A model generated the notes under the pieces. It was not told where the DNA came from and did no database searches. It saw only the letters and a program-made list of their open reading frames with translations. From the IMG/VR virus record IMGVR_UViG_3300045988_062454: 45,240 nucleotides of DNA. One strand, written 5' to 3'. Positions 6,612 through 45,240 of the stretch are shown one piece after another. Made by a program: the position numbers and the translations under genes. Source of the stretch: a virus. Positions within the stretch are counted from its first letter, which is position 1. Each line of letters starts with the position of its first letter.

Positions 6612-6749
6612 ATGAGCCGTGAACAGGATGATTTGGATCAGTTGAAATATATTCAAGAATGGACAAAGAAACAGGCGCAAAAAAGAGCAAGGCGAAAAGA
6701 ATTTGTTCAAAAATTCAAAAATAAATTGAAATGGTGGTGTAGAAAATGA
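6612..6749 (+). CDS. small basic protein (hypothetical)
   Basis: ATG 6612 follows ggggtg. 45 aa, Lys/Arg-rich. It overlaps the next start. Confidence 0.3.
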   Translation: MSREQDDLDQLKYIQEWTKKQAQKRARRKEFVQKFKNKLKWWCRK

Positions 6750-7642
6750 AGATATATGATGGAATTATGGGTTTGGTTGTCGCTGATGCGGTTGGTGTTC
6801 CGTTTGAGTTTAAGAAGCGTGATACTTTCAAGGCGGATAAAATGACCGGGTACGGGACTTACAATCAGCCGCCCGGTACTTGGTCGGATGATAGCAGTTT
6901 GACACTTGCCACGGTTGCAAGCATGGGAAGAAAGGGGAAGATTGATCCGGCTGATATAATGAACAATTTCTTCTTATGGCTGGATGATGGGGCATATACC
7001 CCTTATGGGAAGGTGTTTGATGTGGGCGGCAGCACAAGAAAGGCAATTTCAAGATATGCGAACGGCGTTGAACCTTTGAACTGTGGTGGCAAAACCCGCA
7101 TGGATAACGGCAACGGTGCTTTAATGCGTATTCTTCCACTGGCGTTCATCCCCCATACTGCACAGGATATTTTGAAGGTTGGTAAGCTGACACACGCACA
7201 TGAGATTTCACAAACTGCTTGCCGCTTATATGTTCACCTTGCCGGAAAGCTTATTGAAGGAACGCCGATAAAGGAAGCAATCTGTTCTTTGGCTTATCTT
7301 CCACCCGTTACACAGATGAAGGAATTTGAACGGATTGCCTATATTGGTGAACTGAACCGGGATGAAATCAAAAGTTCCGGGTATGTGGTTGACACACTGG
7401 AAGCCGCCCTTTGGTGTTTATGGGCAACCAACACTTACAAGGATTGTGTGCTTACCGCCGTGAATTTGGGTGAAGATACTGACACAGTGGCAGCGGTGGC
7501 AGGCGGGCTTGCCGGGATTGTTTATGGTTGTGGTGGTAAAAACGGCATACCTACCCGCTGGATCAATCAGATTGCCCGCAAAGAATGGATTCAGATGCTT
7601 TGTGATAATTTTGAAAGTAAATTTTCAAAACATTCAACTTGA
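6746..7642 (+). CDS. ADP-ribosylglycohydrolase (ARH/DraG family)
   Basis: Motifs are GLVVADAVGVPFE, GTWSDDSSLTLA, GNGALMRILP and GEDTDTVAAVAGGLAG. Confidence 0.85.
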   Translation: MKIYDGIMGLVVADAVGVPFEFKKRDTFKADKMTGYGTYNQPPGTWSDDSSLTLATVASMGRKGKIDPADIMNNFFLWLDDGAYTPYGKVFDVGGSTRKAISRYANGVEPLNCGGKTRMDNGNGALMRILPLAFIPHTAQDILKVGKLTHAHEISQTACRLYVHLAGKLIEGTPIKEAICSLAYLPPVTQMKEFERIAYIGELNRDEIKSSGYVVDTLEAALWCLWATNTYKDCVLTAVNLGEDTDTVAAVAGGLAGIVYGCGGKNGIPTRWINQIARKEWIQMLCDNFESKFSKHST

Positions 7643-10395: not shown

Positions 10396-11925
10396 GTGTT
10401 TGGCTTTGTCGGAAACATGGCTTTGCGTGTGTCAAATTGGGCTTTGCAAGGTGTTCATGGAAAAATGCACGATAAAGAATTCCTTGAACGGGAAATTGAA
10501 AAGTGGAAAAACAGCCCGCAGCGTATCATGCAGATCAAAGGTCATTTGTACTATGATAATGAACACGACATTTTAACCCGCAAAAGAACCATGATCGGTG
10601 AAGATGGCAAGCTGCAAGTGGTTGATAATCTTCCGAATAATCGGGTGATTGATAATCAGTATGCAAAGCTTGTCAATCAGAAAGCAAATTATCTTTTGGG
10701 ACAACCTTTTGCCATTGATTGTAATAATGAACAGTACGTTGAACTTTTGAAAAAGGTTTTCAACAAGCGATTTATGAAAACAATCAAGAACGCTGGAAAG
10801 GCTATGATGAACAGCGGTATTTGCTGGCTTTATCCGTATTATACGGAAACGGGGGAATTTTCCTTCCGTCTGTTCCCCGGATATGAAATTCTTCCCTTTT
10901 GGAAGGATAACGAACACACAATCCTTGATTATGCGGTGCGCCTGTATTTGGTGGTTGGGTATGAAGGTATATCCCCCGTGGTAATTGAAAAGGTTGAAGT
11001 GTACGATTTAGACGGGGTACATAGGTTTATTTTAGATGGTGGTGTGCTAATCCCTGATGTTGTCAATCAGGAAAACTCTGATTCTTACCACGTTATGACT
11101 ATGAATGAAAACGGGGAAGTTCAGGGCTTTAACTGGACACGGGTTCCGCTTATCCCGCTGAAATACAATGAACAGGAAACCCCGCTGATAAAAAAGGTGA
11201 AATCTTTGCAGGACGGTATCAATATTATGCTGTCTGACTTTGAAAATGGTATGCAAGAGGACACCCGAAACACTATTCTTGTTCTGAAAAACTATGATGG
11301 CACGAATTTAGGGGAATTCCGGCGCAACCTTGCCACTTTTGGGGCGGTGAAGGTTCGCTATGATGGGGAAACCAAAGGCGGGGTTGAAACCCTTGAAATT
11401 ACCGTCAATTCCGAAAACTACAAGGCTATTTTGGAGATATTCAAAAAGGCTATCATTGAAAACGGCATGGGGTATGATGCCAAAGATGATAGGTTGTCCG
11501 GCAATCCTAATCAGATGAACATTCAATCAATGTATTCTGATATTGATTTGGATGCTAACGATATGGAAACCGAACTGCAAGCGGCTTTTGAAGATGTGCT
11601 TTGGTTTGTAAACGCTTATCTTGCCAATTCCGGTTATGGGGATTTTGAAGGGGAAGATGTGAATATCATTTTCAACCGGGATATTCTCATAAACGAAAGT
11701 GAAGCCATTGATAATTGTGCAAAATCCGTTGGTATTCTTTCGGATGAAACCATCATTGGTATGCACCCGTGGGTGGATGATGTGCAGAAAGAAATGGATA
11801 GGCTTGAAGAACAGAAGCAAAAGGAAAAAGAGGAAGCAGAAGCCAATGCTTATAATCCTTTTGCACCGAACCCGCAGCAGCAAGGGGCTTCACAGCAAAA
11901 AGGCGGTGAAGTAGATGAAGAATAG
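10396..11925 (+). CDS. portal protein (SPP1 gp6-like)
   Basis: 509 aa, follows terL. It has a GTG start after aaagggg and an acidic or Gln-rich C-terminus. Confidence 0.8.
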   Translation: MFGFVGNMALRVSNWALQGVHGKMHDKEFLEREIEKWKNSPQRIMQIKGHLYYDNEHDILTRKRTMIGEDGKLQVVDNLPNNRVIDNQYAKLVNQKANYLLGQPFAIDCNNEQYVELLKKVFNKRFMKTIKNAGKAMMNSGICWLYPYYTETGEFSFRLFPGYEILPFWKDNEHTILDYAVRLYLVVGYEGISPVVIEKVEVYDLDGVHRFILDGGVLIPDVVNQENSDSYHVMTMNENGEVQGFNWTRVPLIPLKYNEQETPLIKKVKSLQDGINIMLSDFENGMQEDTRNTILVLKNYDGTNLGEFRRNLATFGAVKVRYDGETKGGVETLEITVNSENYKAILEIFKKAIIENGMGYDAKDDRLSGNPNQMNIQSMYSDIDLDANDMETELQAAFEDVLWFVNAYLANSGYGDFEGEDVNIIFNRDILINESEAIDNCAKSVGILSDETIIGMHPWVDDVQKEMDRLEEQKQKEKEEAEANAYNPFAPNPQQQGASQQKGGEVDEE

Positions 11926-14416
11926 TGATTACTGGAAGCAGCGTTTTGAACAGCTTGAAATTGCACAGAACCAAATAGGCGGTTCAGCCCTTGGGGAAAT
12001 CGTGCAGCAGTACAATGAAGCCCAAAAGCAGATTGAAGGTCAGATTGCCCGGTGGTATCAGCGTTTTGCCGATAACAACGGGATCACGATGGCAGAAGCC
12101 CGCCAATGGCTTTCCGCTTCTGACCTGAAAGAACTGAAATGGGATGTTCAGGAATATATCAAGTACGGTCAGGACAACGCCTTAATGGGTGGATGGATGA
12201 AGGAATTGGAAAATGCTTCGGCAAAGTACCATATTTCTAAGCTTGAAGCCCTGAAAATTCAGACACAGCAAAGCCTTGAAGTTATGTTTTCAAAACAGCT
12301 TGGGACTATGACCGGGGCAATGCAGGATGTTCTTGAAAGTGGCTATTTCCATACAATCTATGAACTTCAAAACGGATTCGGTATTGGGTGGGATATTGCA
12401 GGACTGGATCAGAAGCAGATTGAAAAGGTGCTTAGTAAACCTTGGGCGGCTGACGGTTACAATTTTTCTGATAGGATTTGGAACAATAAGCAAAAGCTGA
12501 TTTCAGAGGTTCACAGCGAACTTACCCAAAATATCATGCTTGGGGCTGATCCGCAGAAAGCCATTGATTCCCTTGCAAAGAAGATGAAAACTTCTAAGAA
12601 CAACGCCGGGCGGCTTGTTATGACGGAAGAAGCTTATTTCAGTTCCGTTGCACAAGGGGAAGCGTTCAATGAACTTGATGTTGAACAGTATGAAATCCTT
12701 GCAACGCTGGATTCCCACACTTCGGAAATATGCCGCAGCCTTGACGGGCAAGTGTTTCCTATGAAGGATTATGAAGCAGGTGTTACCGCCCCGCCATTTC
12801 ATGTTTATTGCCGTTCAACTACGGTTCCGCATTTTGATGAAAACTTCGGTCAGATTGGGGAACGGGCGGCGAGGGATGAAGAAACGGGCAAAACCTACTA
12901 CATTCCCGATGATATGAATTATCAGGACTGGAAGAAAACCTTTGTGGATGGCGGCGATAAGTCCGGCTTTGATGTGGTAGACGATGGTTCAGCCCTTCAC
13001 TACTCACACCACAAAGAGCCTGAACAGCCCAAACCTAAGAAGGAATATCTGACAAAGAAGAAGCTGCAAGCCTATATTGCGGGTGCGGAAGCTGATATTG
13101 AAGATTTGGAAAACCAATTCAATCAGCAGACAAGCGGCTTGATTTCTTGGGAAGATTTCAAGAAGGACTACGGCGGGGATTATTCCGCTATATCCTATGA
13201 CGGCGCAGAGGAAAAAGCCTTGAAAGCGATTGGGGATCAGATTGAAGCCCTGAACGCTCAAAAGGCAGAGTGGCAAGAAAAGCTGAATGAAAAGCTGGTA
13301 AAGGAACAGAAAAAAGCCCTTGCCAAACAGCAGCTTGATTTGGAAGCGCAGAAAGCCGCCTTGCAGCAGAAGCTTGATGATTTTGAGGTCAAAACCTATT
13401 CCGGCATTTGGAAGGATGATAAAACAACCGCTGATTGGGCTTCCCTGAATATTGAAGGCAAGAAGAAATACTATGAAGGGAAGTTCATTACTGAAAGTGA
13501 TCCTGACCTGATGAAGAAATATCAGGATTTGTACAATCAGCTTCAAGAGCTGGACACAGAGGGTAAAGCCTATGCGGATATTCAGAAAGAATTGCAGCAG
13601 GTCAATAAGCAGATCAGCAAAGTTCAATCTGATTTGAAAAAACTTGAAACTGATGGTATAATTGAATCGGTAGACGATGCCTTTTCGCAGGAAAGAAAAG
13701 ACGCTGCAATGTGGGCTAAGTCAACCAAAGAAGCAGATGCCCTTTTGCGTGATACTTGCGGTGAGGTGTGGCGCACTTCCCCGCCCATACAGAAAAATGC
13801 TATCTACGATTACACCCAAAGTTACCACAAATTCAATGAACCTTTGCGGGGCATTGAATACGGCAGCGAAAAGTTCTTAGGCGTTGGCAATGTGGATTTG
13901 GATCAAATCGGCGTGAAGTATGCTGGATGGCAGCCGGGTGCAATGCGGAAGGAAATCAACGCTATGACTGACATAATCGAAAAATCAACCTATCAGGAAG
14001 ATTTTTGGTTGCAGCGTGGTTGTAGATTTAAGGGCATGGATAAGTTCTTCAATGTTCCGATGGATAAATTGCAGCGGGCAACACAAGATGAATTGGAAGC
14101 CTTGCTTTTGGGTACTACACCCACAGAATACGGCTTTTGTTCATGCGGCGTTGCAAAGGGCAAAGGATTCAGCGGTGATATTATCCTGAATATCTACGCC
14201 CCTTCCGGCACTCAAATGATGTATGTTGAACCATTTTCCGCATTTGGTAATGGTTCGGGCAAGTCTTGGGATGGTATTGCAAAGCAATCTTCTTTCGGGC
14301 AGGAATCGGAAATCATCTTGCAGCAAGGAACAACCTTCCGTGTTACAAAGGTTGAGAAAACACCCGGCATGATATACATTGATCTTGAGGTCATAGGGCA
14401 AAACCCGCAGCGATAG
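11915..14416 (+). CDS. MuF/SPP1 gp7-like minor head protein fused to a C-terminal ADP-ribosyltransferase (R-S-E class) domain
   Basis: The MuF motif is LDSHTSEICRSLDGQVF...APPFHVYCRSTTVP. A long coiled coil follows. The C-terminus then has IYDYTQSYHKFNEPLRG, FWLQRG (Arg), GFCSCG (STS-like) and GQESEIILQQGTTF (ExE). Confidence 0.8.
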   Translation: MKNSDYWKQRFEQLEIAQNQIGGSALGEIVQQYNEAQKQIEGQIARWYQRFADNNGITMAEARQWLSASDLKELKWDVQEYIKYGQDNALMGGWMKELENASAKYHISKLEALKIQTQQSLEVMFSKQLGTMTGAMQDVLESGYFHTIYELQNGFGIGWDIAGLDQKQIEKVLSKPWAADGYNFSDRIWNNKQKLISEVHSELTQNIMLGADPQKAIDSLAKKMKTSKNNAGRLVMTEEAYFSSVAQGEAFNELDVEQYEILATLDSHTSEICRSLDGQVFPMKDYEAGVTAPPFHVYCRSTTVPHFDENFGQIGERAARDEETGKTYYIPDDMNYQDWKKTFVDGGDKSGFDVVDDGSALHYSHHKEPEQPKPKKEYLTKKKLQAYIAGAEADIEDLENQFNQQTSGLISWEDFKKDYGGDYSAISYDGAEEKALKAIGDQIEALNAQKAEWQEKLNEKLVKEQKKALAKQQLDLEAQKAALQQKLDDFEVKTYSGIWKDDKTTADWASLNIEGKKKYYEGKFITESDPDLMKKYQDLYNQLQELDTEGKAYADIQKELQQVNKQISKVQSDLKKLETDGIIESVDDAFSQERKDAAMWAKSTKEADALLRDTCGEVWRTSPPIQKNAIYDYTQSYHKFNEPLRGIEYGSEKFLGVGNVDLDQIGVKYAGWQPGAMRKEINAMTDIIEKSTYQEDFWLQRGCRFKGMDKFFNVPMDKLQRATQDELEALLLGTTPTEYGFCSCGVAKGKGFSGDIILNIYAPSGTQMMYVEPFSAFGNGSGKSWDGIAKQSSFGQESEIILQQGTTFRVTKVEKTPGMIYIDLEVIGQNPQR

Positions 14417-28318: not shown

Positions 28319-30166
28319 ATGGCAGAATTTTCAAAGTTGGTTATCACCAACAAAGGGCAGGCTTTAATTGCAAAGATGATTGCCGGGGAAGGAAACATTG
28401 ACTTCACCAAAATCAGCACTTCAAGCACACAGTATGAAGTTGATGATTTGGAAGCACTCACCGCCTTAACTGGTGTGAAGCAGACTTCCCTTATTTCCAA
28501 AGTTACCCGTACAAACGATGTTGCAATCAAGGTTGAAGCGGCGTTCACCAATACGGATTTAACGGCGGGCTATTATATGCGTACTTTGGGCTTATATGCC
28601 GTTGATCCCGATGAAGGGGAAATCCTGTACGCTGTTACAATCGAAACTTCCGGTAACTGCTATATGCCGCCATATAATGGCGTTACCGTGTCGGGTGCTT
28701 ATGTGCAGCTTGTAACTACGGTTGGTAATGCTGATAGCGTTTCCCTTGAAGTAGATCAGGCGGCAGTTGCTACAATCGGAGATATTCAGGAATTGCAGAA
28801 GCAGATTTCCGATTTGCAGGCGTTTGTGGGCTATACCGATGATGATATTTTCGGTGTGGAAGTGGATTTTGTAAATAAAAAATTCACCCGCCTTGCGGCA
28901 GCCGTAAACCGTACACCGGGGGAAGGTTTTGACGATATTCCTTGCTTTGGCGGGCGTAAACGCTGCAACGTAACCGATGATGGCAGAGTTGCCGCCTACT
29001 ACGGTGAAGCGGGATTTTCCACCACAGGTAAGCTTACACAGGCGATTGACCGCAACCCGGAAGATGTGGAAGAACCTGATACTTCCTTGCAGTTTGCAAG
29101 CGGTACGATTGTTCAAACGATGGTTGAACAGCCTAAGTTTTATTACAAGGTCGTTCCGCTGCTTGTGGAGAATACAGCAAAAGGACAGATCACCCGAAAA
29201 GTACGCTACTATGTTTCCCCCGTTGCAAAGGCTGGATTCAAGCTTCACCCGGCGTTCATTTCCAACGGCAGACAGCTTGAAAAGATTTACCTTGCAGCCT
29301 TTGAAGGTTGCCTTTGGGACGCTTCCGCAGGAACGGGAGGGGCTTACATTTTGGATGATGAACAGGTAGCTTCTTTCACAAGTGCAGTTGGTACAGGTGA
29401 TAAGTTGTCCAGCATTGCTAATGCAAAGCCTATGTCTGGAAAGACACAGAACCTTACAAGGGGAAATGCCCGTATTATTGCCCGGAATCGTGGTACAGGT
29501 TGGGAACAGTCTTATGCCGCAACCGTGGGCGCAACTCAAATTCTGATGCTGATTGAATATGCGTCCTTTGATATGCAGTCTAAAATCGGAAGTGGTGTGA
29601 GTGGTAAAACGGACGATGCAACCAATAATATGGCAGAAAACACCGGGGCAACCGTTAGCCTTGGTAATGCTTCCGGTTCTGTCACTAACGATGGGGGCTT
29701 TAATATTGTATCTTATCGTGGTGAAGAAAACTTTTGGGCTAATATTTGGACTTGGGTTGATGGTATGAATGAACAGAACCCTTCCGATTGGACGAACACG
29801 GAAGATTTCAGCGGTGAATATGGTGATCTGTATGTTGCGGATCACGGGTTTGTAGACGATACAGGAAGTTCCCCGTATGTCAACACCAACCTTCACCCTT
29901 GCTATGGTGAAGGGTACATTTCCGCTTTCTGCTATTCGGAAGATTTTGATTGGATGTTCATTACAGGTGAAGTTTCCGGTAATTCTTCCCTTCCCGTTGG
30001 CGATTACTTTTGGAATCGTTATTCTGGCTGGCGGGTGGTTAGTTTGGGCGGTTTATGGAATTATGGTTCTAGGTGCGGCGGCTTCTATTGGCATCTGACT
30101 TATGCTTCTTCTAATCGCTATCGGATTATCGGCGGGCGGTTGGTGTATGTACCGCAGGCAGCCTAA
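28319..30166 (+). CDS. tail fibre / receptor-binding protein; DGR target with C-terminal variable region
   Basis: 615 aa, follows the baseplate genes. Its last ~48 codons are the VR of the DGR. Confidence 0.8.
   Translation: MAEFSKLVITNKGQALIAKMIAGEGNIDFTKISTSSTQYEVDDLEALTALTGVKQTSLISKVTRTNDVAIKVEAAFTNTDLTAGYYMRTLGLYAVDPDEGEILYAVTIETSGNCYMPPYNGVTVSGAYVQLVTTVGNADSVSLEVDQAAVATIGDIQELQKQISDLQAFVGYTDDDIFGVEVDFVNKKFTRLAAAVNRTPGEGFDDIPCFGGRKRCNVTDDGRVAAYYGEAGFSTTGKLTQAIDRNPEDVEEPDTSLQFASGTIVQTMVEQPKFYYKVVPLLVENTAKGQITRKVRYYVSPVAKAGFKLHPAFISNGRQLEKIYLAAFEGCLWDASAGTGGAYILDDEQVASFTSAVGTGDKLSSIANAKPMSGKTQNLTRGNARIIARNRGTGWEQSYAATVGATQILMLIEYASFDMQSKIGSGVSGKTDDATNNMAENTGATVSLGNASGSVTNDGGFNIVSYRGEENFWANIWTWVDGMNEQNPSDWTNTEDFSGEYGDLYVADHGFVDDTGSSPYVNTNLHPCYGEGYISAFCYSEDFDWMFITGEVSGNSSLPVGDYFWNRYSGWRVVSLGGLWNYGSRCGGFYWHLTYASSNRYRIIGGRLVYVPQAA
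30023..30166 (+). repeat. DGR variable region (VR)
   Basis: It aligns to 30262..30403 at a constant offset of +239. Differences are almost only where the TR has A. Confidence 0.9.
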
Positions 30167-30261
30167 AACCGTTCAATAATTATTGAAAAATTGAAAATAT
30201 GGGGGATTCAGGGAGTTTTGTTGTTTACTCACCGATATAGGGGAGAAAGCAGAAAAAAGAA

Positions 30262-30403
30262 ACCATATAGCAGGTAGCTAAATTAGGCAGTAAATGGAAT
30301 AATGGTTCTAAATGCAGCAGCTTCTATTGGAATCTGAATAATGCTTCTTCTAATCGCAATCGGAATATCAGCAGGCAGTTAGTAAATGCACGATTCAGCC
30401 TAT
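30262..30403 (+). repeat. DGR template repeat (TR), non-coding
   Basis: It is an A-rich copy of the VR and contains an in-frame tag. It has nine AAT codons in the VR frame. The 5' boundary is uncertain by about 10 nt because the flank is A-rich. Confidence 0.9.
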
Positions 30404-30432
30404 GGGGTAGCGTTTTACTACCCCATAGGCTG
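30396..30432 (+). other. 15-bp-stem hairpin at the 3' edge of the TR
   Basis: cagcctatggggtag (30396..30410) pairs with ctaccccataggctg (30418..30432). The loop is cgtttta. Confidence 0.7.
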
Positions 30433-30601
30433 TTTCAAATAAATCTCTGTATTCCTGAATCGCCCCGCCGCTCGGCGGAACAGACAGCCCCCGAAAGGGG
30501 GAAGTTAAAAATAAAATTGGGCTGTATTGGTAGACTTTGAAAGTTTATTTTCAAAGGTTGAAGATTCGGCTTAATGTGCATACAAAGGGAACATTCGACA
30601 A

Positions 30602-31720
30602 ATGAAGCGATATGGAAATCTATATGAACAGATTTGTTCGATGGATAACCTACGCAAAGCCCACCAAAACGCAAAGAAGGGAAAAGGCTGGTATGAGGAA
30701 GTAAAAGAGGTTGAAGCGGATGTTGACGGCTATTTGACACGGCTTCAAGAAATGCTTATCAATCACACCTACCAAACTTCCAAATATGAAAAATTTATCA
30801 AGCGGGAAAACGGAAAGGAACGGGAAATTTTCAAATTGCCTTACTTCCCGGATCGTATTTGTCAATGGGCGATTCTGCAAGTCATTGAACCGTATCTATT
30901 GCGGTATATGACAAAGAACACCTATTCAGCAATCCCTGACCGGGGAATCCATGCGGCGTTGCAAGATGTAAGGGACGCTATGCAAAAGGATGTTCCCGGC
31001 TGTCAGTATTGTTTGAAGCTTGATGTAAGAAAGTTTTACCCTTCTATCAATCACGATATTTTGAAACAGAAATTCAGGAGATTGTTCAAAGATGCTGAAT
31101 TGCTTTGGTTGTTGGATGAAATCATAGATAGCATTTGTACCGCTAAAATTGAAGATATGCGTGATATTTGGTTGCTTGATGAAGATATTGATTCTGAAAC
31201 AGGCATACCAATAGGGAATTACCTTTCCCAATATTGCGGCAACTTCTATCTTTCAGGATTCGATCACTGGATCAAGGAAGAAAAGCGGGTGAAACACTAC
31301 TTCCGGTATATGGATGATATTGTGATATTCGGTGCTGATAAAGCAGAACTTCACCGATTACTAAAAGAAATTGACGCTTATTTCCGGCAGAATTTGAAGC
31401 TGACTATCAAGGGAAATTGGCAAGTGTTTCCTTCTTATGTGCGGGGTGTAGATTTTGTGGGGTATCGAACATTTTTGAATTATACGCTTTTGAGGAAATC
31501 AAGCTGTAAGAGATTCAAGGCAAGGATGGTTGCAATCAGGAAAAAGACGGAAACCGGGCAGATGATGAATTATTCTGAATGGTGTTCCGTGAATTCTTAT
31601 AAGGGGTGGTTAAAGCATTGCGATAGTTACCGCTTACAGCAAAAGTACCTTGCACCGATCCAGCCGGATGCCGATAGGTATTATTTGGAAGTCATAAAAT
31701 CTAAAAGAAAGGCGGCGTAA
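30602..31720 (+). CDS. DGR-type reverse transcriptase
   Basis: Motifs are IPDRGIH, LKLDVRKFYPSINH, GIPIGNYLSQYCGN (the IGxxxSQ DGR hallmark), YFRYMDDIVIFG (YMDD) and VDFVGYR. Confidence 0.95.
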   Translation: MKRYGNLYEQICSMDNLRKAHQNAKKGKGWYEEVKEVEADVDGYLTRLQEMLINHTYQTSKYEKFIKRENGKEREIFKLPYFPDRICQWAILQVIEPYLLRYMTKNTYSAIPDRGIHAALQDVRDAMQKDVPGCQYCLKLDVRKFYPSINHDILKQKFRRLFKDAELLWLLDEIIDSICTAKIEDMRDIWLLDEDIDSETGIPIGNYLSQYCGNFYLSGFDHWIKEEKRVKHYFRYMDDIVIFGADKAELHRLLKEIDAYFRQNLKLTIKGNWQVFPSYVRGVDFVGYRTFLNYTLLRKSSCKRFKARMVAIRKKTETGQMMNYSEWCSVNSYKGWLKHCDSYRLQQKYLAPIQPDADRYYLEVIKSKRKAA

Positions 31721-32003: not shown

Positions 32004-32111
32004 ATGGCAAAAATCTATGCTGAACTTATCAGAAAAGGTCTTAAAACCATTGATGATGTACCGGACAATCTCAAAGAAGATGTTCAGGGTATTCTTGGTG
32101 GTGATGACTGA
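32004..32111 (+). CDS. small protein, CD1375/XkdX-like
   Basis: Not in the ORF track (35 aa): MAKIYAELIRKGLKTIDDVPDNLKEDVQGILGGDD. RBS aaaggggtg is present. Confidence 0.5.
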   Translation: MAKIYAELIRKGLKTIDDVPDNLKEDVQGILGGDD

Positions 32112-32161
32112 TGTTTCAGTTCATCATATATCAAATCTTATTTAGAAAGGATGTGAAAGAA

Positions 32162-32287
32162 ATGGCAGTTGTTTATGCAACCCTTATCGTGAAAGGCAAG
32201 AAGGATTTTTCTGATGTTCCTGAAAGAATTCAGGATCAGGTGAAAGAAGTTCTGATTGACCTTGATTTGGCTGAATTGGCGCAGTAA
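32162..32287 (+). CDS. small protein, paralogue of 32004..32111
   Basis: Not in the ORF track (41 aa): MAVVYATLIVKGKKDFSDVPERIQDQVKEVLIDLDLAELAQ. It shares the YA.LI.KG...DVP pattern. RBS aaaggatgtg is present. Confidence 0.5.
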   Translation: MAVVYATLIVKGKKDFSDVPERIQDQVKEVLIDLDLAELAQ

Positions 32288-38100: not shown

Positions 38101-38260
38101 ACAGCCGAAACCGGGGAAGCCCGGTCACACGGAAATGACCGTCCGTGTCTGATGATGGCAGGTCAACGGCACTTTGAAAACTGAATCTATCCGGCAGCGG
38201 CTTAGTCAACCGCAAGGGGTAACACTGTAAGTCCCCTGTATAAGTGCCGTACAAATTCAA
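38101..38260 (+). other. structured non-coding gap (candidate ncRNA or leader)
   Basis: It contains hairpins accggg-gaag-cccggt and acacgga/tccgtgt. A 9-bp long-range helix joins acggcactt (38166..38174) and aagtgccgt (38242..38250). No credible ORF is present. Confidence 0.3.
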
Positions 38261-43534: not shown

Positions 43535-45240
43535 CCGCCGACACACCAGCGGAAGCAGACAACCCCTTGATTTTGGGAACAGCCTTACATACAGGCATTG
43601 AACGCAGCCTTGAAGAAGCACTTCACGAATATGCTTTCAGCTTCCCTATTATCACGGATGAACATATCCATGAAATGATAAAGCTTGAAACAGTGATTCC
43701 GCTTGCAAGGTCGGCAATTCCCAAAGGTGGAAAATTTGAGGTTGAGATCAAAGACGATGATTTCCACGGATTCATTGATTACCTTGTCCCTATGGGGTGG
43801 ATGCCAAAGGATGCTTATACAAACCCGTATGGGGAAAGCGTTGATATATTCGATATTTACGATTTCAAGTATTCAAACAATGTTTCCGGCTATAAGCAGT
43901 CCAACCAACTTCACCTGTACAAATATTTCTTTGAGCGGGACAACCCCGGAAAGAAAATCCGTGATATGTACCTTGTGTTTGTCCCAAAGGTATCTATCAA
44001 GCAGAAGAAAACTGAAACCTTGGTGGAATTCAGGCAACGCCTGAAAGGTGAATTGTCAAAGGTTGAAGTAAAAATTGTTCAAATTGGGTTCAATCCCAAA
44101 AAGGTGATTGATTTCCTGTTTGGAATAAAAGCGGTGAATGATGAAACAGAGTTCCCGCAGGCAAACAAAAGCTATCTTTGCCGTTTTTGTGAATTTCAAG
44201 ATTATTGTATGAAAGGATGGGATTACATGATTAAGTTGCCCGAAAACAAAAGAAGAAACCTTGAGGAAGTCAAGAAGCGTGTGCTTTGGATTTATGGTGT
44301 TCCGTTTTGCGGAAAAACCACCTTTGCAAACAGCTTTCCCGATCCGCTTATGCTGAACACGGATGGTAATATCAAGTTCGTTGATGCGCCTTTTGTCCGT
44401 ATCAGGGATGAAGTGAAGGTTGAGGGTAGGCAGACGAAAAGAACGCTTGCTTGGGATGTGTTTAAGGACACGATTTCCGAACTGGAAAAGAAGGAAAACA
44501 CTTTCAAAACGATTGTGGTTGACCTTCTGGAAGATTTGTATGAGCATTGCCGCCTGTATATGTATCAGCAGATGGGGATCACCCATGAATCGGACGATTC
44601 TTTCCGGGCATGGGACAAGGTAAGGGGTGAATTTCTGAATACCCTGAAACGCCTTATGAACCTTGATTATGAAAATATCATTCTGATTTCCCATGAGGAC
44701 ACCAGCAAGGATATTACCAAAAAGGGCGGCGATAAGATCACAGCCATTAAGCCGAATTTGCAGGATAAGGTTGCAAACAAGGTTGCCGGCATGGTGGATG
44801 TGGTTGCCCGTATCGTGGCAGATGGTGACACCCGCACATTTTCCTTCAAGTCGAATGAAGTTATTTTCGGCGGCGGGCGGCTTAGAGTTACCGCAAAGGA
44901 TATTCCCCTTGATGTGAACGCCTTGTTTGCGGTTTACGATGAAGCCAATAAAAACGCTGCTTCCGGGGTTGTTCCCGCATCTGAAACTACAAGTAGAGCC
45001 GCAAGACGGAAAAAGGCAGAGGAAGCCCCCGCAGCAGGCGCAGATAAGCCGCAGGACAGCCCCAAAGAGGAACAGACGGTAAGTGATACCCCCGAACAGG
45101 AAACGCCTGTAAATGAGCCGCAGGAAAGCGCAGACGATAAGCCGCCGTTTGATGAAGCTGGAACATGGACACCGGGCGGCGGTGAAGTGGATGATTCCGA
45201 TCCGCTCAAAGGAAATATGAATCCCCCGGAAGCACCTGAA
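43456..45240 (+). CDS. single open frame joining a Cas4-like PD-(D/E)XK nuclease (N-terminal) to an AAA_24/Sak4-like ATPase (C-terminal); it runs off the window and continues at 56..106
   Basis: This ORF is not in the track because it has no stop inside the window. TTG 43456 follows gaaagggg. The nuclease motifs are SSIDCFEKC, DDDFHGFIDYL, DIYDFKYS, QLHLY and CRFCEFQDYC (CX2CX5C). The ATPase has IYGVPFCGKTTFA (Walker A) and TIVVDLLEDL (Walker B). I translated every codon from 43456 to 45240 and found no stop. Confidence 0.7.
   Translation, partial: MRYSHSSIDCFEKCKFKYKMRYLDGITADTPAEADNPLILGTALHTGIERSLEEALHEYAFSFPIITDEHIHEMIKLETVIPLARSAIPKGGKFEVEIKDDDFHGFIDYLVPMGWMPKDAYTNPYGESVDIFDIYDFKYSNNVSGYKQSNQLHLYKYFFERDNPGKKIRDMYLVFVPKVSIKQKKTETLVEFRQRLKGELSKVEVKIVQIGFNPKKVIDFLFGIKAVNDETEFPQANKSYLCRFCEFQDYCMKGWDYMIKLPENKRRNLEEVKKRVLWIYGVPFCGKTTFANSFPDPLMLNTDGNIKFVDAPFVRIRDEVKVEGRQTKRTLAWDVFKDTISELEKKENTFKTIVVDLLEDLYEHCRLYMYQQMGITHESDDSFRAWDKVRGEFLNTLKRLMNLDYENIILISHEDTSKDITKKGGDKITAIKPNLQDKVANKVAGMVDVVARIVADGDTRTFSFKSNEVIFGGGRLRVTAKDIPLDVNALFAVYDEANKNAASGVVPASETTSRAARRKKAEEAPAAGADKPQDSPKEEQTVSDTPEQETPVNEPQESADDKPPFDEAGTWTPGGGEVDDSDPLKGNMNPPEAPE

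Follow-up and report, generated by a model that had tools for sequence, protein, structure and literature searches.

A compact, probably active diversity-generating retroelement without an accessory gene at the tail-fibre locus of a temperate myovirus from gut Lachnospiraceae

The locus described here, a tail-fibre gene followed by a non-coding repeat of its 3' end and by a reverse transcriptase (RT) gene, raises the question of whether it is a working diversity-generating retroelement (DGR) and, if so, what such an element needs besides its RT. To our knowledge, DGRs are the only system by which bacteria and phages naturally hypermutate targeted proteins, and directed-evolution tools are being built on them; all mechanistic work on DGRs that we know of rests on the Avd-dependent Bordetella element. 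The window, i.e., the whole stretch of 45,240 nucleotides that was analysed, appears to be a complete circular genome, and it very probably carries an active target-TR-RT DGR without accessory gene, in a temperate myovirus of gut Lachnospiraceae. As an earlier note on this DNA had stated, the DGR class is already known; the same is true of the compact architecture (Architecture A), and the locus is another instance, ordinary as a DGR. It is a useful minimal example, lacking an Avd helper gene yet possessing a conserved structured RNA.

The cassette is arranged in the order VR, a gap of ~100-114 nt, TR, a gap of 210 nt, and RT, and comprises the following features:

28319-30166, + strand: target tail-fibre gene, an ORF of 615 aa with the VR at its extreme 3' end
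29441-30163, + strand: C-terminal C-type-lectin-fold (CLec-fold) domain, aa 375-615, as predicted with AF2 and Foldseek
30028-30152, + strand: VR, the full TR-homologous stretch, in gapless alignment at an offset of 239
30041-30130, + strand: hypervariable VR core, codons 575-604, in which close relatives vary
30131-30152, + strand: IMH-like element GGCGGGCGGTTGGTGTATGTAC, a G-rich invariant block that closes the VR on its 3' side and encodes GGRLVYV
30267-30391, + strand: TR (template repeat), non-coding, with an in-frame TAG and 31 adenines in mutagenised codons
30370-30391, + strand: putative IMH* AGCAGGCAGTTAGTAAATGCAC, corresponding to the IMH with A substitutions and ending in the 6 nt ATGCAC
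30602-31720, + strand: DGR reverse transcriptase, an ORF of 372 aa (Pfam RVT_1; PHROG 1423)

Ahead of the tail-fibre gene, Pfam identified sheath-initiator, Baseplate_J and Mu gp48-like genes. The designation "temperate myovirus" in the earlier note agrees with the window's genes for sheath, tape measure, baseplate and integrase, the gene content indicating a virion of the PBSX/Xkd-like myovirus type. Identification of the target as a tail fibre is likewise borne out by its location downstream of the baseplate genes, by its N-terminal tail-collar fibre domain (aa 6-150; Phage_tail_fib, Pfam PF12571), and by a hit to PHROG 5302 "tail protein" at E = 1e-183. No GenBank phage was matched by the cassette in a Megablast search.

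A computed gapless alignment agrees with the repeat core that had been aligned by hand, VR 30029-30152 against TR 30268-30391 (124 nt) at an offset of +239, and an independent repeat search returned 30031-30152 and 30270-30391 with 79 % identity. The hand count of 27 mismatches, 25 of them at TR adenines and two at other positions (TR 30278 and 30389), proved to be exact, and the estimate that about 25 of some 42 TR adenines are substituted matches the computed 25 of 42. The substitutions at TR adenines comprise 15 A>G, eight A>T and two A>C changes; mismatches are strongly enriched at A as compared to non-A positions of the TR (Fisher's exact p = 6e-13). A search of the window with the non-A positions of the TR found the VR as the sole match (65/66 positions) and no remote second VR. 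Occupying the last 47 codons of the tail fibre, the VR had been delimited as 30023-30166, which stands as regards the homology core; its 3' part does not, the last ~22 nt being a fixed putative IMH/IMH* pair rather than a site of mutagenesis. The nine AAT codons of the TR read N, Y, H, T, Y, N, Y, I and Y in the VR, as claimed. They support the suggested stop-free AAY design, but the TR is not purely AAY, as three AAA codons can mutate to stops. The TR had rightly been taken as untranslated, since it lies inside no ORF and contains an in-frame TAG at codon 571 (30268-30270). This TAG at its 5' edge, together with the three AAA codons, would give stops in a fraction of homing events.

Six of the 25 adenine mismatches (TR 30370, 30373, 30377, 30381, 30384 and 30385) show the identical substitution in every related locus shown, bar one position in locus L016; because they are shared across related loci, they are attributed to fixed IMH/IMH* differences and not to mutagenesis. 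One of the six is at a synonymous site (30145/30384). The 22-nt IMH block and its pattern of A in the TR and G in the VR recur essentially unchanged in the 17 loci shown, with RT identities of 57-99 %, and the encoded residues GGRLVYV are invariant within the target cluster. The diverging 3' ends of TR and VR were previously read as IMH versus IMH*, and the recurrence of the same differences in essentially all loci shown is consistent with such a putative pair.

Variation among close relatives was analysed in a set of 16 sequences that are at least 90 % identical (15 of them near-identical relatives). Eleven positions carry four to ten different residues each; all 11 correspond to AAA or AAT codons of the TR, and every residue observed there is reachable by an A-to-N change. 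Residues 576-600 account for 60 extra residue types in this set, as compared to 0-15 in other 25-residue bins. When the window is compared to L002, a 98 %-identical phage, the VR shows 19 differences, 17 of them at TR-A positions, and the TR shows one. The expectation of a VR that varies at TR-adenine codons beside a conserved TR is therefore borne out by a comparison between metagenomic relatives, as opposed to one within a single lineage or culture. The 90 %-identity cluster of the target contains 1372 distinct sequences. The same compact layout with A-only mismatches was found in about 70 of 80 IMG/VR relatives and in prophages of cultured strains, the A-only mismatch stretches of related loci measuring 114-121 nt. 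The DGR family, represented by 323 IMG/VR loci, is frequent in prophages of Lachnospiraceae and in gut viromes, and relatives occur as prophages in [Clostridium] asparagiforme DSM 15981, Otoolea muris DSM 111138, and Coprococcus comes MSK.16.63.

Modelled at full length with AF2, the tail fibre gave an unusable result (mean pLDDT 50.8; VR region below 50); the model of the last 241 aa, calculated from a more diverse alignment, reached a pLDDT of 94.3 and a pTM of 0.90. In a Foldseek search against the PDB, this C-terminal domain matched TaqVP (5vf4) first (E = 4.5e-7), followed by Mtd (1yu0-4), TvpA (2y3c), FGE, and C-type lectins, and matches in BFVD were phage tail collar fibres, including those of crAss-like phages, with TM-scores up to 0.95. 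A sequence comparison of the C-terminal 185 aa with the PDB gave nothing meaningful, and Pfam and NCBIfam found no CLec, FGE-sulfatase or DUF1566 domain in the tail fibre. The confident model and the DGR variable proteins among its top structural matches support the C-type-lectin fold that had been suspected for the variable domain, and the predicted CLec-fold domain probably displays the variable residues.

Both motifs reported earlier for the RT ORF 30602-31720, IGNYLSQ and YMDD, are present, the former corresponding to the DGR RT signature [I/V/L]GxxxSQ (PMC7826257). The best PDB match is the Bordetella bRT (8ub7; E = 9e-35); retron-type and group II RTs follow at about 1e-18 and score at least 50 bits below bRT. 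Residues aligned to R74, I181, G182, Q187 and D215/D216 of bRT are kept, and on the window ORFs the NCBIfam group II and retron models scored far below their cut-offs. The IGNYLSQ signature and the far better match to bRT thus point to a DGR-type RT, as had been proposed, rather than to a retron or group II enzyme. The nearest RT of a GenBank phage is that of Psychrobacillus phage Perkons (53 %), with those of crAss-like phages next (40-47 %). Many Bacteroidota relatives of the RT show 45-50 % identity, and it is solely from these that we infer a possible membership in Lineage 3 (Wu et al. 2018).

These data bear on two explanations that do without an active DGR. Recombination and diversifying selection commonly act on tail-fibre tips, so that the tip could vary by ordinary recombination and positive selection, with the repeat as a chance or regulatory duplication beside an unrelated RT of a retron or group II intron; we give this explanation almost no credence. 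It cannot explain variation limited to the adenines of a non-coding repeat 239 nt away, the RT, besides its preference for bRT, carries IGxxxSQ and not QGxxxSP, and Rfam reported RT-17 alone in the window, with no retron RNA or group II intron RNA. Adenine-restricted variation and RT type effectively refute it already. Very improbable, too, is a decayed or silent DGR, whose TR/VR pattern and whose relatives' diversity would be relics of past activity. That the phage is represented by a single genome is in its favour, but the RT ORF is intact and retains every catalytic and signature motif, the TR, the IMH and the RNA helices are intact and conserved, and phages with 92-98 % identical flanks have VRs that differ extensively and at A positions only, which indicates turnover that is recent relative to the background divergence. 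The sequence around the TR contains the following elements:

30202-30215, + strand: 5' arm of a TR-bracketing duplex, GGGGATTCAGGGAG, pairing with 30451-30464
30396-30432, + strand: HP1, a perfect 15-bp hairpin directly 3' of the TR
30451-30464, + strand: 3' arm of the TR-bracketing duplex, ATTCCTGAATCGCC, ending in an invariant CC
30466-30487, + strand: HP2 (CGCC-GCTC-GGCG) followed by A-rich AACAGACAG, the most conserved element of the spacer
30483-30585, + strand: Rfam RT-17 RNA (RF03020), 48.0 bits as compared to a gathering score of 40.4
30576-30584, + strand: conserved GTGCATACA box, closely preceding the ribosome-binding site of the RT gene, with invariant or nearly invariant columns

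RNAalifold, applied to a MAFFT alignment of the spacer, recovered HP2 alone, because the variable hairpins were misaligned; HP1 and the long-range duplex were therefore examined in the individual sequences and in anchored alignments. In 26 distinct loci, 92 % of the cells of the bracketing duplex are paired versus 63 % in shuffles and at most 56 % in slid controls, percentages which, like those for the GTGCAT box given below, are somewhat inflated because the RNA arms were set in the registers that give most pairing. Compensatory changes occur in 11 of the 13 pairs of this duplex. All 40 aligned loci have a hairpin (11-17 bp) at the position of HP1, formed by about ten unrelated stem sequences. 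A role of HP1 as intrinsic terminator of the tail-fibre operon was considered and is unsupported by a terminator scan of the window. In several relatives, a U-run follows the HP1 stem, and there the terminator reading stays an alternative.

For HP2, RNAalifold gives four pairs, three of them with compensatory changes. The element coincides with the 5' end of the RT-17 model; an alignment with L016 indicates that the RT-17 element of the window really begins near 30461, a GAAA-capped hairpin (30488-30501) being an insertion. RT-17 is located directly upstream of the RT in seven of 16 related loci (42.5-63.3 bits). Near its 3' end, the GTGCATACA (GTGCAT) box is a candidate primer strand that might pair with TR 30386-30391 (ATGCAC). 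Such pairing is suggestive: it involves 6-9 contiguous bp in the clade of the window, with some compensatory changes, and 83 % of cells are paired versus 73 % in shuffles; it is weak in the L024-L053 subclade.

As to proteins that might assist the RT, Pfam and NCBIfam gave no match to Avd (four-helix bundle, PF05635/TIGR02436) among all window ORFs of at least 60 aa, and the HRDC family was not matched among the scanned window ORFs. [quoted passage not shown] The VR-TR gap (~100-114 nt) and the TR-RT gap (~210 nt, taken up by structured RNA) are clade-wide features and too short for the cassette to house a further gene. An 87-aa ORF directly after the RT gene, considered as an Avd substitute, matches merely a PHROG of unknown function; it is not a conserved cassette member and was rejected because in this stretch the window and L002, whose RTs are 98 % identical, have diverged strongly. 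Accessory-free architecture accounts for 29 % of catalogued DGRs, which include one lineage without avd (Wu et al. 2018, PMC5758913).

The DGR might nevertheless be active without being self-sufficient, if an unrecognised protein, i.e., a divergent four-helix protein or another phage or host factor, supplied the Avd function. Avd is essential for bRT activity in the Bordetella system, the literature describes avd genes as very weakly conserved, HP1 occupies the site of the Avd-binding stem-loops of Avd-containing DGRs, and several small ORFs of the phage have no assigned function. Set against these points, the failure of the window ORFs to match Avd, the clade-wide shortness of the gaps, the divergence of the stretch behind the RT gene, and the avd-lacking lineage already on record make a hidden helper rather unlikely. 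A bolder reading, conceivable but less likely than not, is that the clade is a naturally minimal, Avd-independent DGR, in which ~400 nt of cis RNA and the RT are all that self-primed, adenine-mutagenic synthesis of cDNA requires. This RNA would consist of the TR within the long-range duplex, HP1, and RT-17, whose GTGCAT box would pair with the TR at its 3' end, and the RNA scaffold and/or extra segments of the RT would replace positioning by Avd.

In the mechanism proposed here for the active DGR, an RNA of roughly 30200-30600, its extent being conjectural, would fold such that sequences upstream and downstream form a duplex bracketing the TR, with a stable hairpin after the TR and the RT-17 element adjoining the RT start. 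The RT (30602-31720) would copy the TR into cDNA, possibly primed in cis from the GTGCAT box, and would misincorporate at template adenines. The cDNA would then replace tail-fibre codons 575-604, the invariant G-rich IMH (30131-30152) setting the 3' boundary of the replaced stretch. Up to ~4e16 variants of the ligand-binding face of the CLec-fold tip could result, and such variants presumably change the host receptors bound by the phage; both this effect on tropism and the independence from Avd are what we infer.

Since no Avd was found and relatives reside as prophages in cultured strains, the family offers a tractable two-part system consisting of RT and RNA. The RNA elements supported by covariation are concrete mutation targets for the study of priming and template definition without Avd, in a DGR family that is very abundant in gut phages.

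The DGR of Bordetella phage BPP-1 (mtd-avd-TR-brt) also targets a tail fibre, with the VR at the 3' end of the gene and a CLec-fold tip, and shares the adenine-specific TR/VR differences, the G-rich IMH at their 3' limit, and a homologous RT, of which R74, I181, G182 and Q187 are conserved here. It differs in possessing avd, which the present locus is without, in its spacer RNA, which is RT-10 instead of Rfam RT-17, and in its RT, which is 44 aa shorter; the carrier described here is a PBSX/Xkd-like myovirus of a Gram-positive gut anaerobe. In BPP-1, a GC-rich inverted repeat follows the VR. Here it is absent, the DNA fold of 30150-30205 being no better than that of shuffled sequences (z = 0.17), and a strong hairpin follows the TR instead; the inverted repeat is present in only 34 % of DGRs (Wu et al. 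2018, PMC5758913). The Bordetella DGR RNA, with a stem-loop just 3' of the TR and a combination of upstream-downstream duplex, stem-loop and adenosines, is paralleled by HP1, the bracketing duplex, HP2 and RT-17. The target-TR-RT layout without accessory gene is that of Architecture A1 and of the avd-less Lineage 3 (Wu et al. 2018). Among DGRs of uncultured gut phages, those of crAss-like phages have near RTs, and the tail fibres of these phages rank with the closest structural matches of the target domain, but crAss-like phages differ in virion type and host phylum, and the rest of their genome is unrelated. TaqVP (5VF4), Mtd (1YU0-4) and TvpA (2Y3C) likewise have their variable residues encoded at the C-terminal end of the fold, although sequence identity is merely 13-15 % and TM-scores are modest (0.38-0.55). 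RT-17, finally, was first described by its proximity to RT genes, with speculative retron or DGR roles, RT-10 alone being tied to a DGR (Weinberg et al. 2017, PMC5737381); here, by contrast, it lies between a verified TR and its RT as the 3' part of a larger TR-bracketing fold, and this orphan Rfam motif probably gains a role in DGRs.

The diversity-generating retroelement (DGR) proposed in the earlier note for the end of the tail-fibre gene is real, and its interpretation was right in all essentials: adenine-specific mismatches between the variable repeat (VR) and the non-coding template repeat (TR), a DGR-type reverse transcriptase (RT), a target with a predicted C-type-lectin (CLec) fold, and population variation all agree. 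The element belongs to a known and very common class, the gut-phage DGRs on CLec-tipped tail fibres, with Architecture A (a TR–RT core without accessory gene). The present analysis adds the exact limits of the mutagenised core and of the IMH, the assignment of the RNA motif RT-17 to the DGR spacer of this lineage, an RNA fold surrounding the TR that is backed by covariation, and the finding that cultured strains carry relatives. The parts of the element are:

28319–30166 (+), tail-fibre target gene
30029–30152, VR
30041–30130, putative varied core of the VR (codons 575–604)
30131–30152, candidate IMH, the 3'-end block of the VR
30202–30215, 5' arm of a long-range duplex
30268–30391, TR
30280–30369, TR counterpart of the varied core
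30370–30391, candidate IMH*, the 3'-end block of the TR
30396–30432 (+), hairpin HP1, a perfect 15-bp stem
30451–30464, 3' arm of the long-range duplex
30461–30482, counterpart of the 5' end of the RT-17 model
30483–30585, match to RT-17
30576–30584, conserved GTGCATACA box
30602–31720 (+), RT

Positions 1–55 of the window, which has a GC content of 43%, are identical to 45186–45240. Since such ends are the k-mer overlap signature of a circular contig, the window most likely represents a complete phage genome, assembled as a circle, of about 45.2 kb. Among its products are both terminase subunits (small and large), an SPP1-type portal and a scaffold protein, as well as a sheath protein, an XkdN-like chaperone, a tape measure protein, a sheath initiator, Baseplate_J and a Mu gp48-like protein. 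Next to the gene of the last lies that of the 615-aa target, followed by those of the RT, a holin, an endolysin (amidase/SPOR/CW_7) and a tyrosine integrase. The phage is a temperate PBSX/Xkd-like myovirus; the sheath, tape measure, baseplate and integrase genes bear out an earlier assignment as a temperate myovirus. A small ORF between RT and holin (32111–32287, +) matches the NCBIfam "CD1375 family" (E = 5e-11; PHROG 1382), which is typical of clostridial phages. A Mu-F-like minor head protein (11915–14416, +) has an ADP-ribosyltransferase exoenzyme domain (PF03496) at its C-terminus, and an ADP-ribosylglycohydrolase is encoded at 6746–7642 (+; PF03747, E = 3e-68); the two may represent a virion-delivered ADP-ribosyltransferase and its reversing enzyme. 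In the lysogeny/early region, amid short, spurious-looking ORFs, a type II hammerhead ribozyme (RF02276) was detected at 38103–38167 (+), scoring 44.7 bits against an Rfam gathering score of 37.

When the alignment was recomputed, VR and TR matched without gaps at a constant offset of +239. The core contains 27 mismatches, 25 of which fall on the 42 TR adenines (A>G, 15; A>T, 8; A>C, 2) and two on non-A positions (TR 30278 and 30389), an enrichment with p = 6e-13 in Fisher's exact test; the hand alignment on which the proposal had been based is thereby reproduced. An independent repeat search recovered the same pair. A scan of both strands of the whole window with the TR's non-A positions revealed a single VR, matching at 65 of 66, and no second one, the runner-up reaching 35/66.

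At codon level, the nine AAT codons of the TR read N, Y, H, T, Y, N, Y, I and Y in the VR, and an in-frame TAG occurs at TR 30268–30270, both as described before. The stop-free AAY design attributed to the TR holds for the AAT codons but not for three AAA codons (575, 579 and 585; 30280–30282, 30292–30294 and 30310–30312), each of which can become TAA. As, in addition, the TAG lies opposite an invariant TGG in the VR, a fraction of homing events should truncate the fibre, in contrast to a stop-free design.

At their 3' ends the repeats differ in a fixed manner. In the 17 loci shown, whose RTs share 57–99% identity, the VR block reads GGCGG(G/T)CG(G/C)TTGGTGTATGTACC and the TR block AGCAG(G/T)CA(G/C)TTAGTAAATGCAC; the A-to-G difference pattern is uniform except for one position in one locus (L016). 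VR 30145 (TR 30384) occupies the third, synonymous position of a valine codon, yet is G in every VR shown, so selection at the protein level cannot explain the pattern. Residues 605–615 (GGRLVYVPQAA) are invariant in a cluster of relatives at 90% identity, where the TR encodes SRQLVN. Judged from these alignments, the block behaves as an IMH/IMH* pair marking the 3' limit of information transfer rather than as mutagenised sequence. The 3' part of the VR as delimited earlier thus appears to be fixed IMH, which would narrow the actively varied core to codons 575–604. The 31 TR adenines of this core permit about 4.6e18 DNA and 4.2e16 protein variants (computed). Fixed A(TR)/G(VR) differences are also present at the 5' edge (TR 30269, 30272 and 30276 versus VR 30030, 30033 and 30037), one of them converting the TAG to the invariant TGG; both ends of the homology carry G in the VR and A in the TR. 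The heptamer CAGCCTA at the end of the tail-fibre ORF (30160–30166) reappears at the opening of the HP1 stem (30396–30402), whereby similarity restarts past the IMH if a 2-nt gap is allowed. This recurrence, present in the window and the related locus L002 and absent from L001, may be due to chance or be a remnant of an ancestral duplication.

Searches with the C-terminal 416 aa of the target yielded 5879 protein matches, and a related RT is encoded at 323 IMG/VR loci; the family is thus abundant. Lachnospiraceae genomes also harbour related prophages, examples being those of [Clostridium] asparagiforme DSM 15981, Otoolea muris DSM 111138 and, with strain MSK.16.63, Coprococcus comes. The VR–TR–RT layout is common to about 70 of 80 IMG/VR loci and the prophages of cultured strains, some loci showing stretches of up to 121 nt with all mismatches at adenines. 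One 90%-identity cluster, whose representative (P0001) is 95% identical to the target, comprises 1372 distinct sequences. When 15 members of this cluster were aligned with the window protein, residues 576–600 exhibited 60 residue types beyond the first, compared with 0–15 in any other 25-residue bin. Eleven positions with 4–10 residues each (575, 579, 581, 582, 585, 592, 594, 595, 599, 601 and 603) coincide exactly with AAA or AAT codons of the TR, while positions 590 (TAT) and 604 (ATC) alternate between Y/C and I/V, respectively; adenine-only changes of the TR codon suffice for every residue at these variable positions. Compared with L002 (RT 98% identical), the window shows 19 differences in the VR, 17 of them at TR adenines, and one in the TR. 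Metagenomic relatives thus display the predicted hypervariation of the VR at TR adenines along with conservation of the TR. Two cluster members (P0124 and P0126) share residues that are unreachable from the window's TR (CGAF for CGGF, SA for AS, and L for S at residue 584), which implies, at the sequence level, that a variant TR allele circulates inside the same cluster.

The 372-aa RT is an RVT_1 protein whose best solved relative is 8ub7_A (E = 9e-35), with retron-type and group II RTs trailing at about 1e-18 in the same PDB search. The numbering of I181, G182, Q187 and D215/D216 in this chain coincides with positions published by the Ghosh laboratory, identifying it as the RT of Bordetella phage BPP-1 (bRT). 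The signature IGNYLSQ corresponds to the DGR motif [I/V/L]GxxxSQ, in place of which other RT classes have QGxxxSP (PMC7826257). Equivalents of R74 and I181, the two bRT residues shown to promote adenine mutagenesis, are kept. Motif and ranking agree with the DGR-type RT expected previously.

The N-terminus of the target is a tail-collar fibre (PF12571), and the protein matches PHROG 5302 ("tail protein", E = 1e-183); its C-terminus was not recognized by Pfam, NCBIfam or PDB sequence searches. The full-length AF2 model was poor, whereas residues 375–615, modelled from a 112-sequence alignment, gave a pLDDT of 94.3 and a pTM of 0.90. In a Foldseek search of the PDB, the top match was TaqVP, a DGR variable protein of Thermus (E = 4.5e-7, probability 1.0); the five Mtd variants of Bordetella came next, ahead of TvpA of Treponema, formylglycine-generating enzymes and C-type lectins of snake venom. 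This ranking of the model supports the CLec fold guessed for the C-terminal domain. According to BFVD, numerous uncultured gut phages have "tail collar fibre" proteins tipped by the same domain (29441–30163); they include the crAss-like phages cr55_1, cr6_1 and cr7_1 (A0A7M1RUR1, A0A7M1RTM8 and A0A7M1RS57), and RTs of crAss-like phages are among those closest to the window RT in GenBank phages. The nearest annotated relatives of both RT and CLec domain are in crAss-like Bacteroides phages, which suggests that the whole cassette moves between unrelated phage lineages.

The TR–RT spacer contains a match to RT-17 (RF03020) above the gathering score, found at the corresponding position in 7 of 16 relatives. 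Motifs RT-1 to RT-19 were described solely as motifs near RT genes, RT-10 alone being tied to a DGR, in the TR–RT spacer of BPP-1 (Weinberg et al. 2017, PMC5737381). Alignment to L016 indicated that the 5' end of the RT-17 model comprises ACC, a 4-bp hairpin and AAAC; a GAAA-capped hairpin at 30488–30501, taken by the Rfam scan for the 5' stem of the model, is an insertion. In an alignment of 40 distinct spacers, HP1 directly follows the TR in all loci, with 11–17 bp and about ten unrelated stem sequences. A long-range duplex joins an arm about 50–65 nt upstream of the TR to one after HP1, both anchored by an invariant GG...CC (arm pairs, e.g., GGTTGAAAGAAC/GTTCTTTCAACC, GGCAAGCAG/CTGCTTGCC and GGTTAATATCAT/ATGATATTGACC). 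The fraction of paired cells in 26 distinct arm pairs was 92.3%, versus 63.2% after shuffling and ≤56% with slid register, the register having been picked to maximise pairing, which biases the percentage upward; compensatory changes occur at 11 of 13 pairs. The 3' arm is directly adjoined by a second hairpin, HP2, in which three of four pairs covary, and then by AAACAGA; HP2 and AAACAGA together form the most conserved stretch of the spacer. Immediately before the RT ribosome-binding site, GTGCAT (30576–30581) of the GTGCATACA box is complementary to ATGCAC at the 3' end of TR/IMH* (30386–30391). In the window's clade, as in several other clades, 6–9 pairs are contiguous. Some changes are compensatory (C:G to A:T or T:A), and in L063/L076 the pairing extends to 9 bp; it is weaker in the L024–L053 subclade and overall comprises 83% of cells versus 73% shuffled, likewise in a register chosen for maximal pairing and hence biased upward. 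This comparison of sequences is suggestive only. Between VR and 5' arm, TTCAA/TTGAA motifs recur at 30173–30198 (TTCAATAATTATTGAAAAATTGAAAA), with similar TTGAA repeats in related loci; a promoter scan called no sigma-70-like promoter there.

The gaps between VR and TR (about 100 nt) and between TR and RT (210 nt) are short, and the clade as a whole shares this compact layout. No ORF of ≥60 aa in the window matched the Avd/23S-IVP (Pfam) or four-helix-bundle (NCBIfam) families of the Bordetella accessory protein Avd. The avd-less state is already known: Architecture A accounts for 29% of DGRs, and a lineage without avd has been noted (Wu et al. 2018, PMC5758913). Two loci with more distant RTs (44–45% identity), L109 of Flavobacterium facile and L129 of Alistipes putredinis DSM 17216, have VR–TR offsets of about 550 nt as compared to about 200–270 nt; the extra length would accommodate a small accessory gene, and these loci might mark a point of Avd loss or gain.

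Three RNA features have been reported across 278 Avd-containing DGRs: in most of them (207), a stem-loop immediately 3' of the TR, the counterpart of which in the Bordetella element binds Avd; in the same 207 members, a "cPRT Stop" duplex between sequences on either side of the TR; and, in a 47-member subset, a further adjacent stem-loop, with adenosines following it in nearly all cases (Handa et al., bioRxiv 2023.10.23.563531). In the Bordetella element, a spacer adenosine that lies in a short duplex to the TR 3' end serves as the primer of cDNA synthesis. Unlike Avd-containing DGRs, the window's clade lacks Avd, and unlike in BPP-1, folding of the region downstream of the VR gave no stable inverted repeat. 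Nevertheless, HP1, the bracketing duplex, HP2 with its A-rich stretch, and the box:TR pairing map one-to-one onto the RNA elements of Bordetella and Avd-type DGRs. From this anatomy and the covariation, we think that the mechanism of reverse transcription is probably the same in outline as in Bordetella: a pre-folded RNA would define the template and cis-prime cDNA synthesis, the positioning role of Avd being assumed by the RNA, the RT, or another factor.
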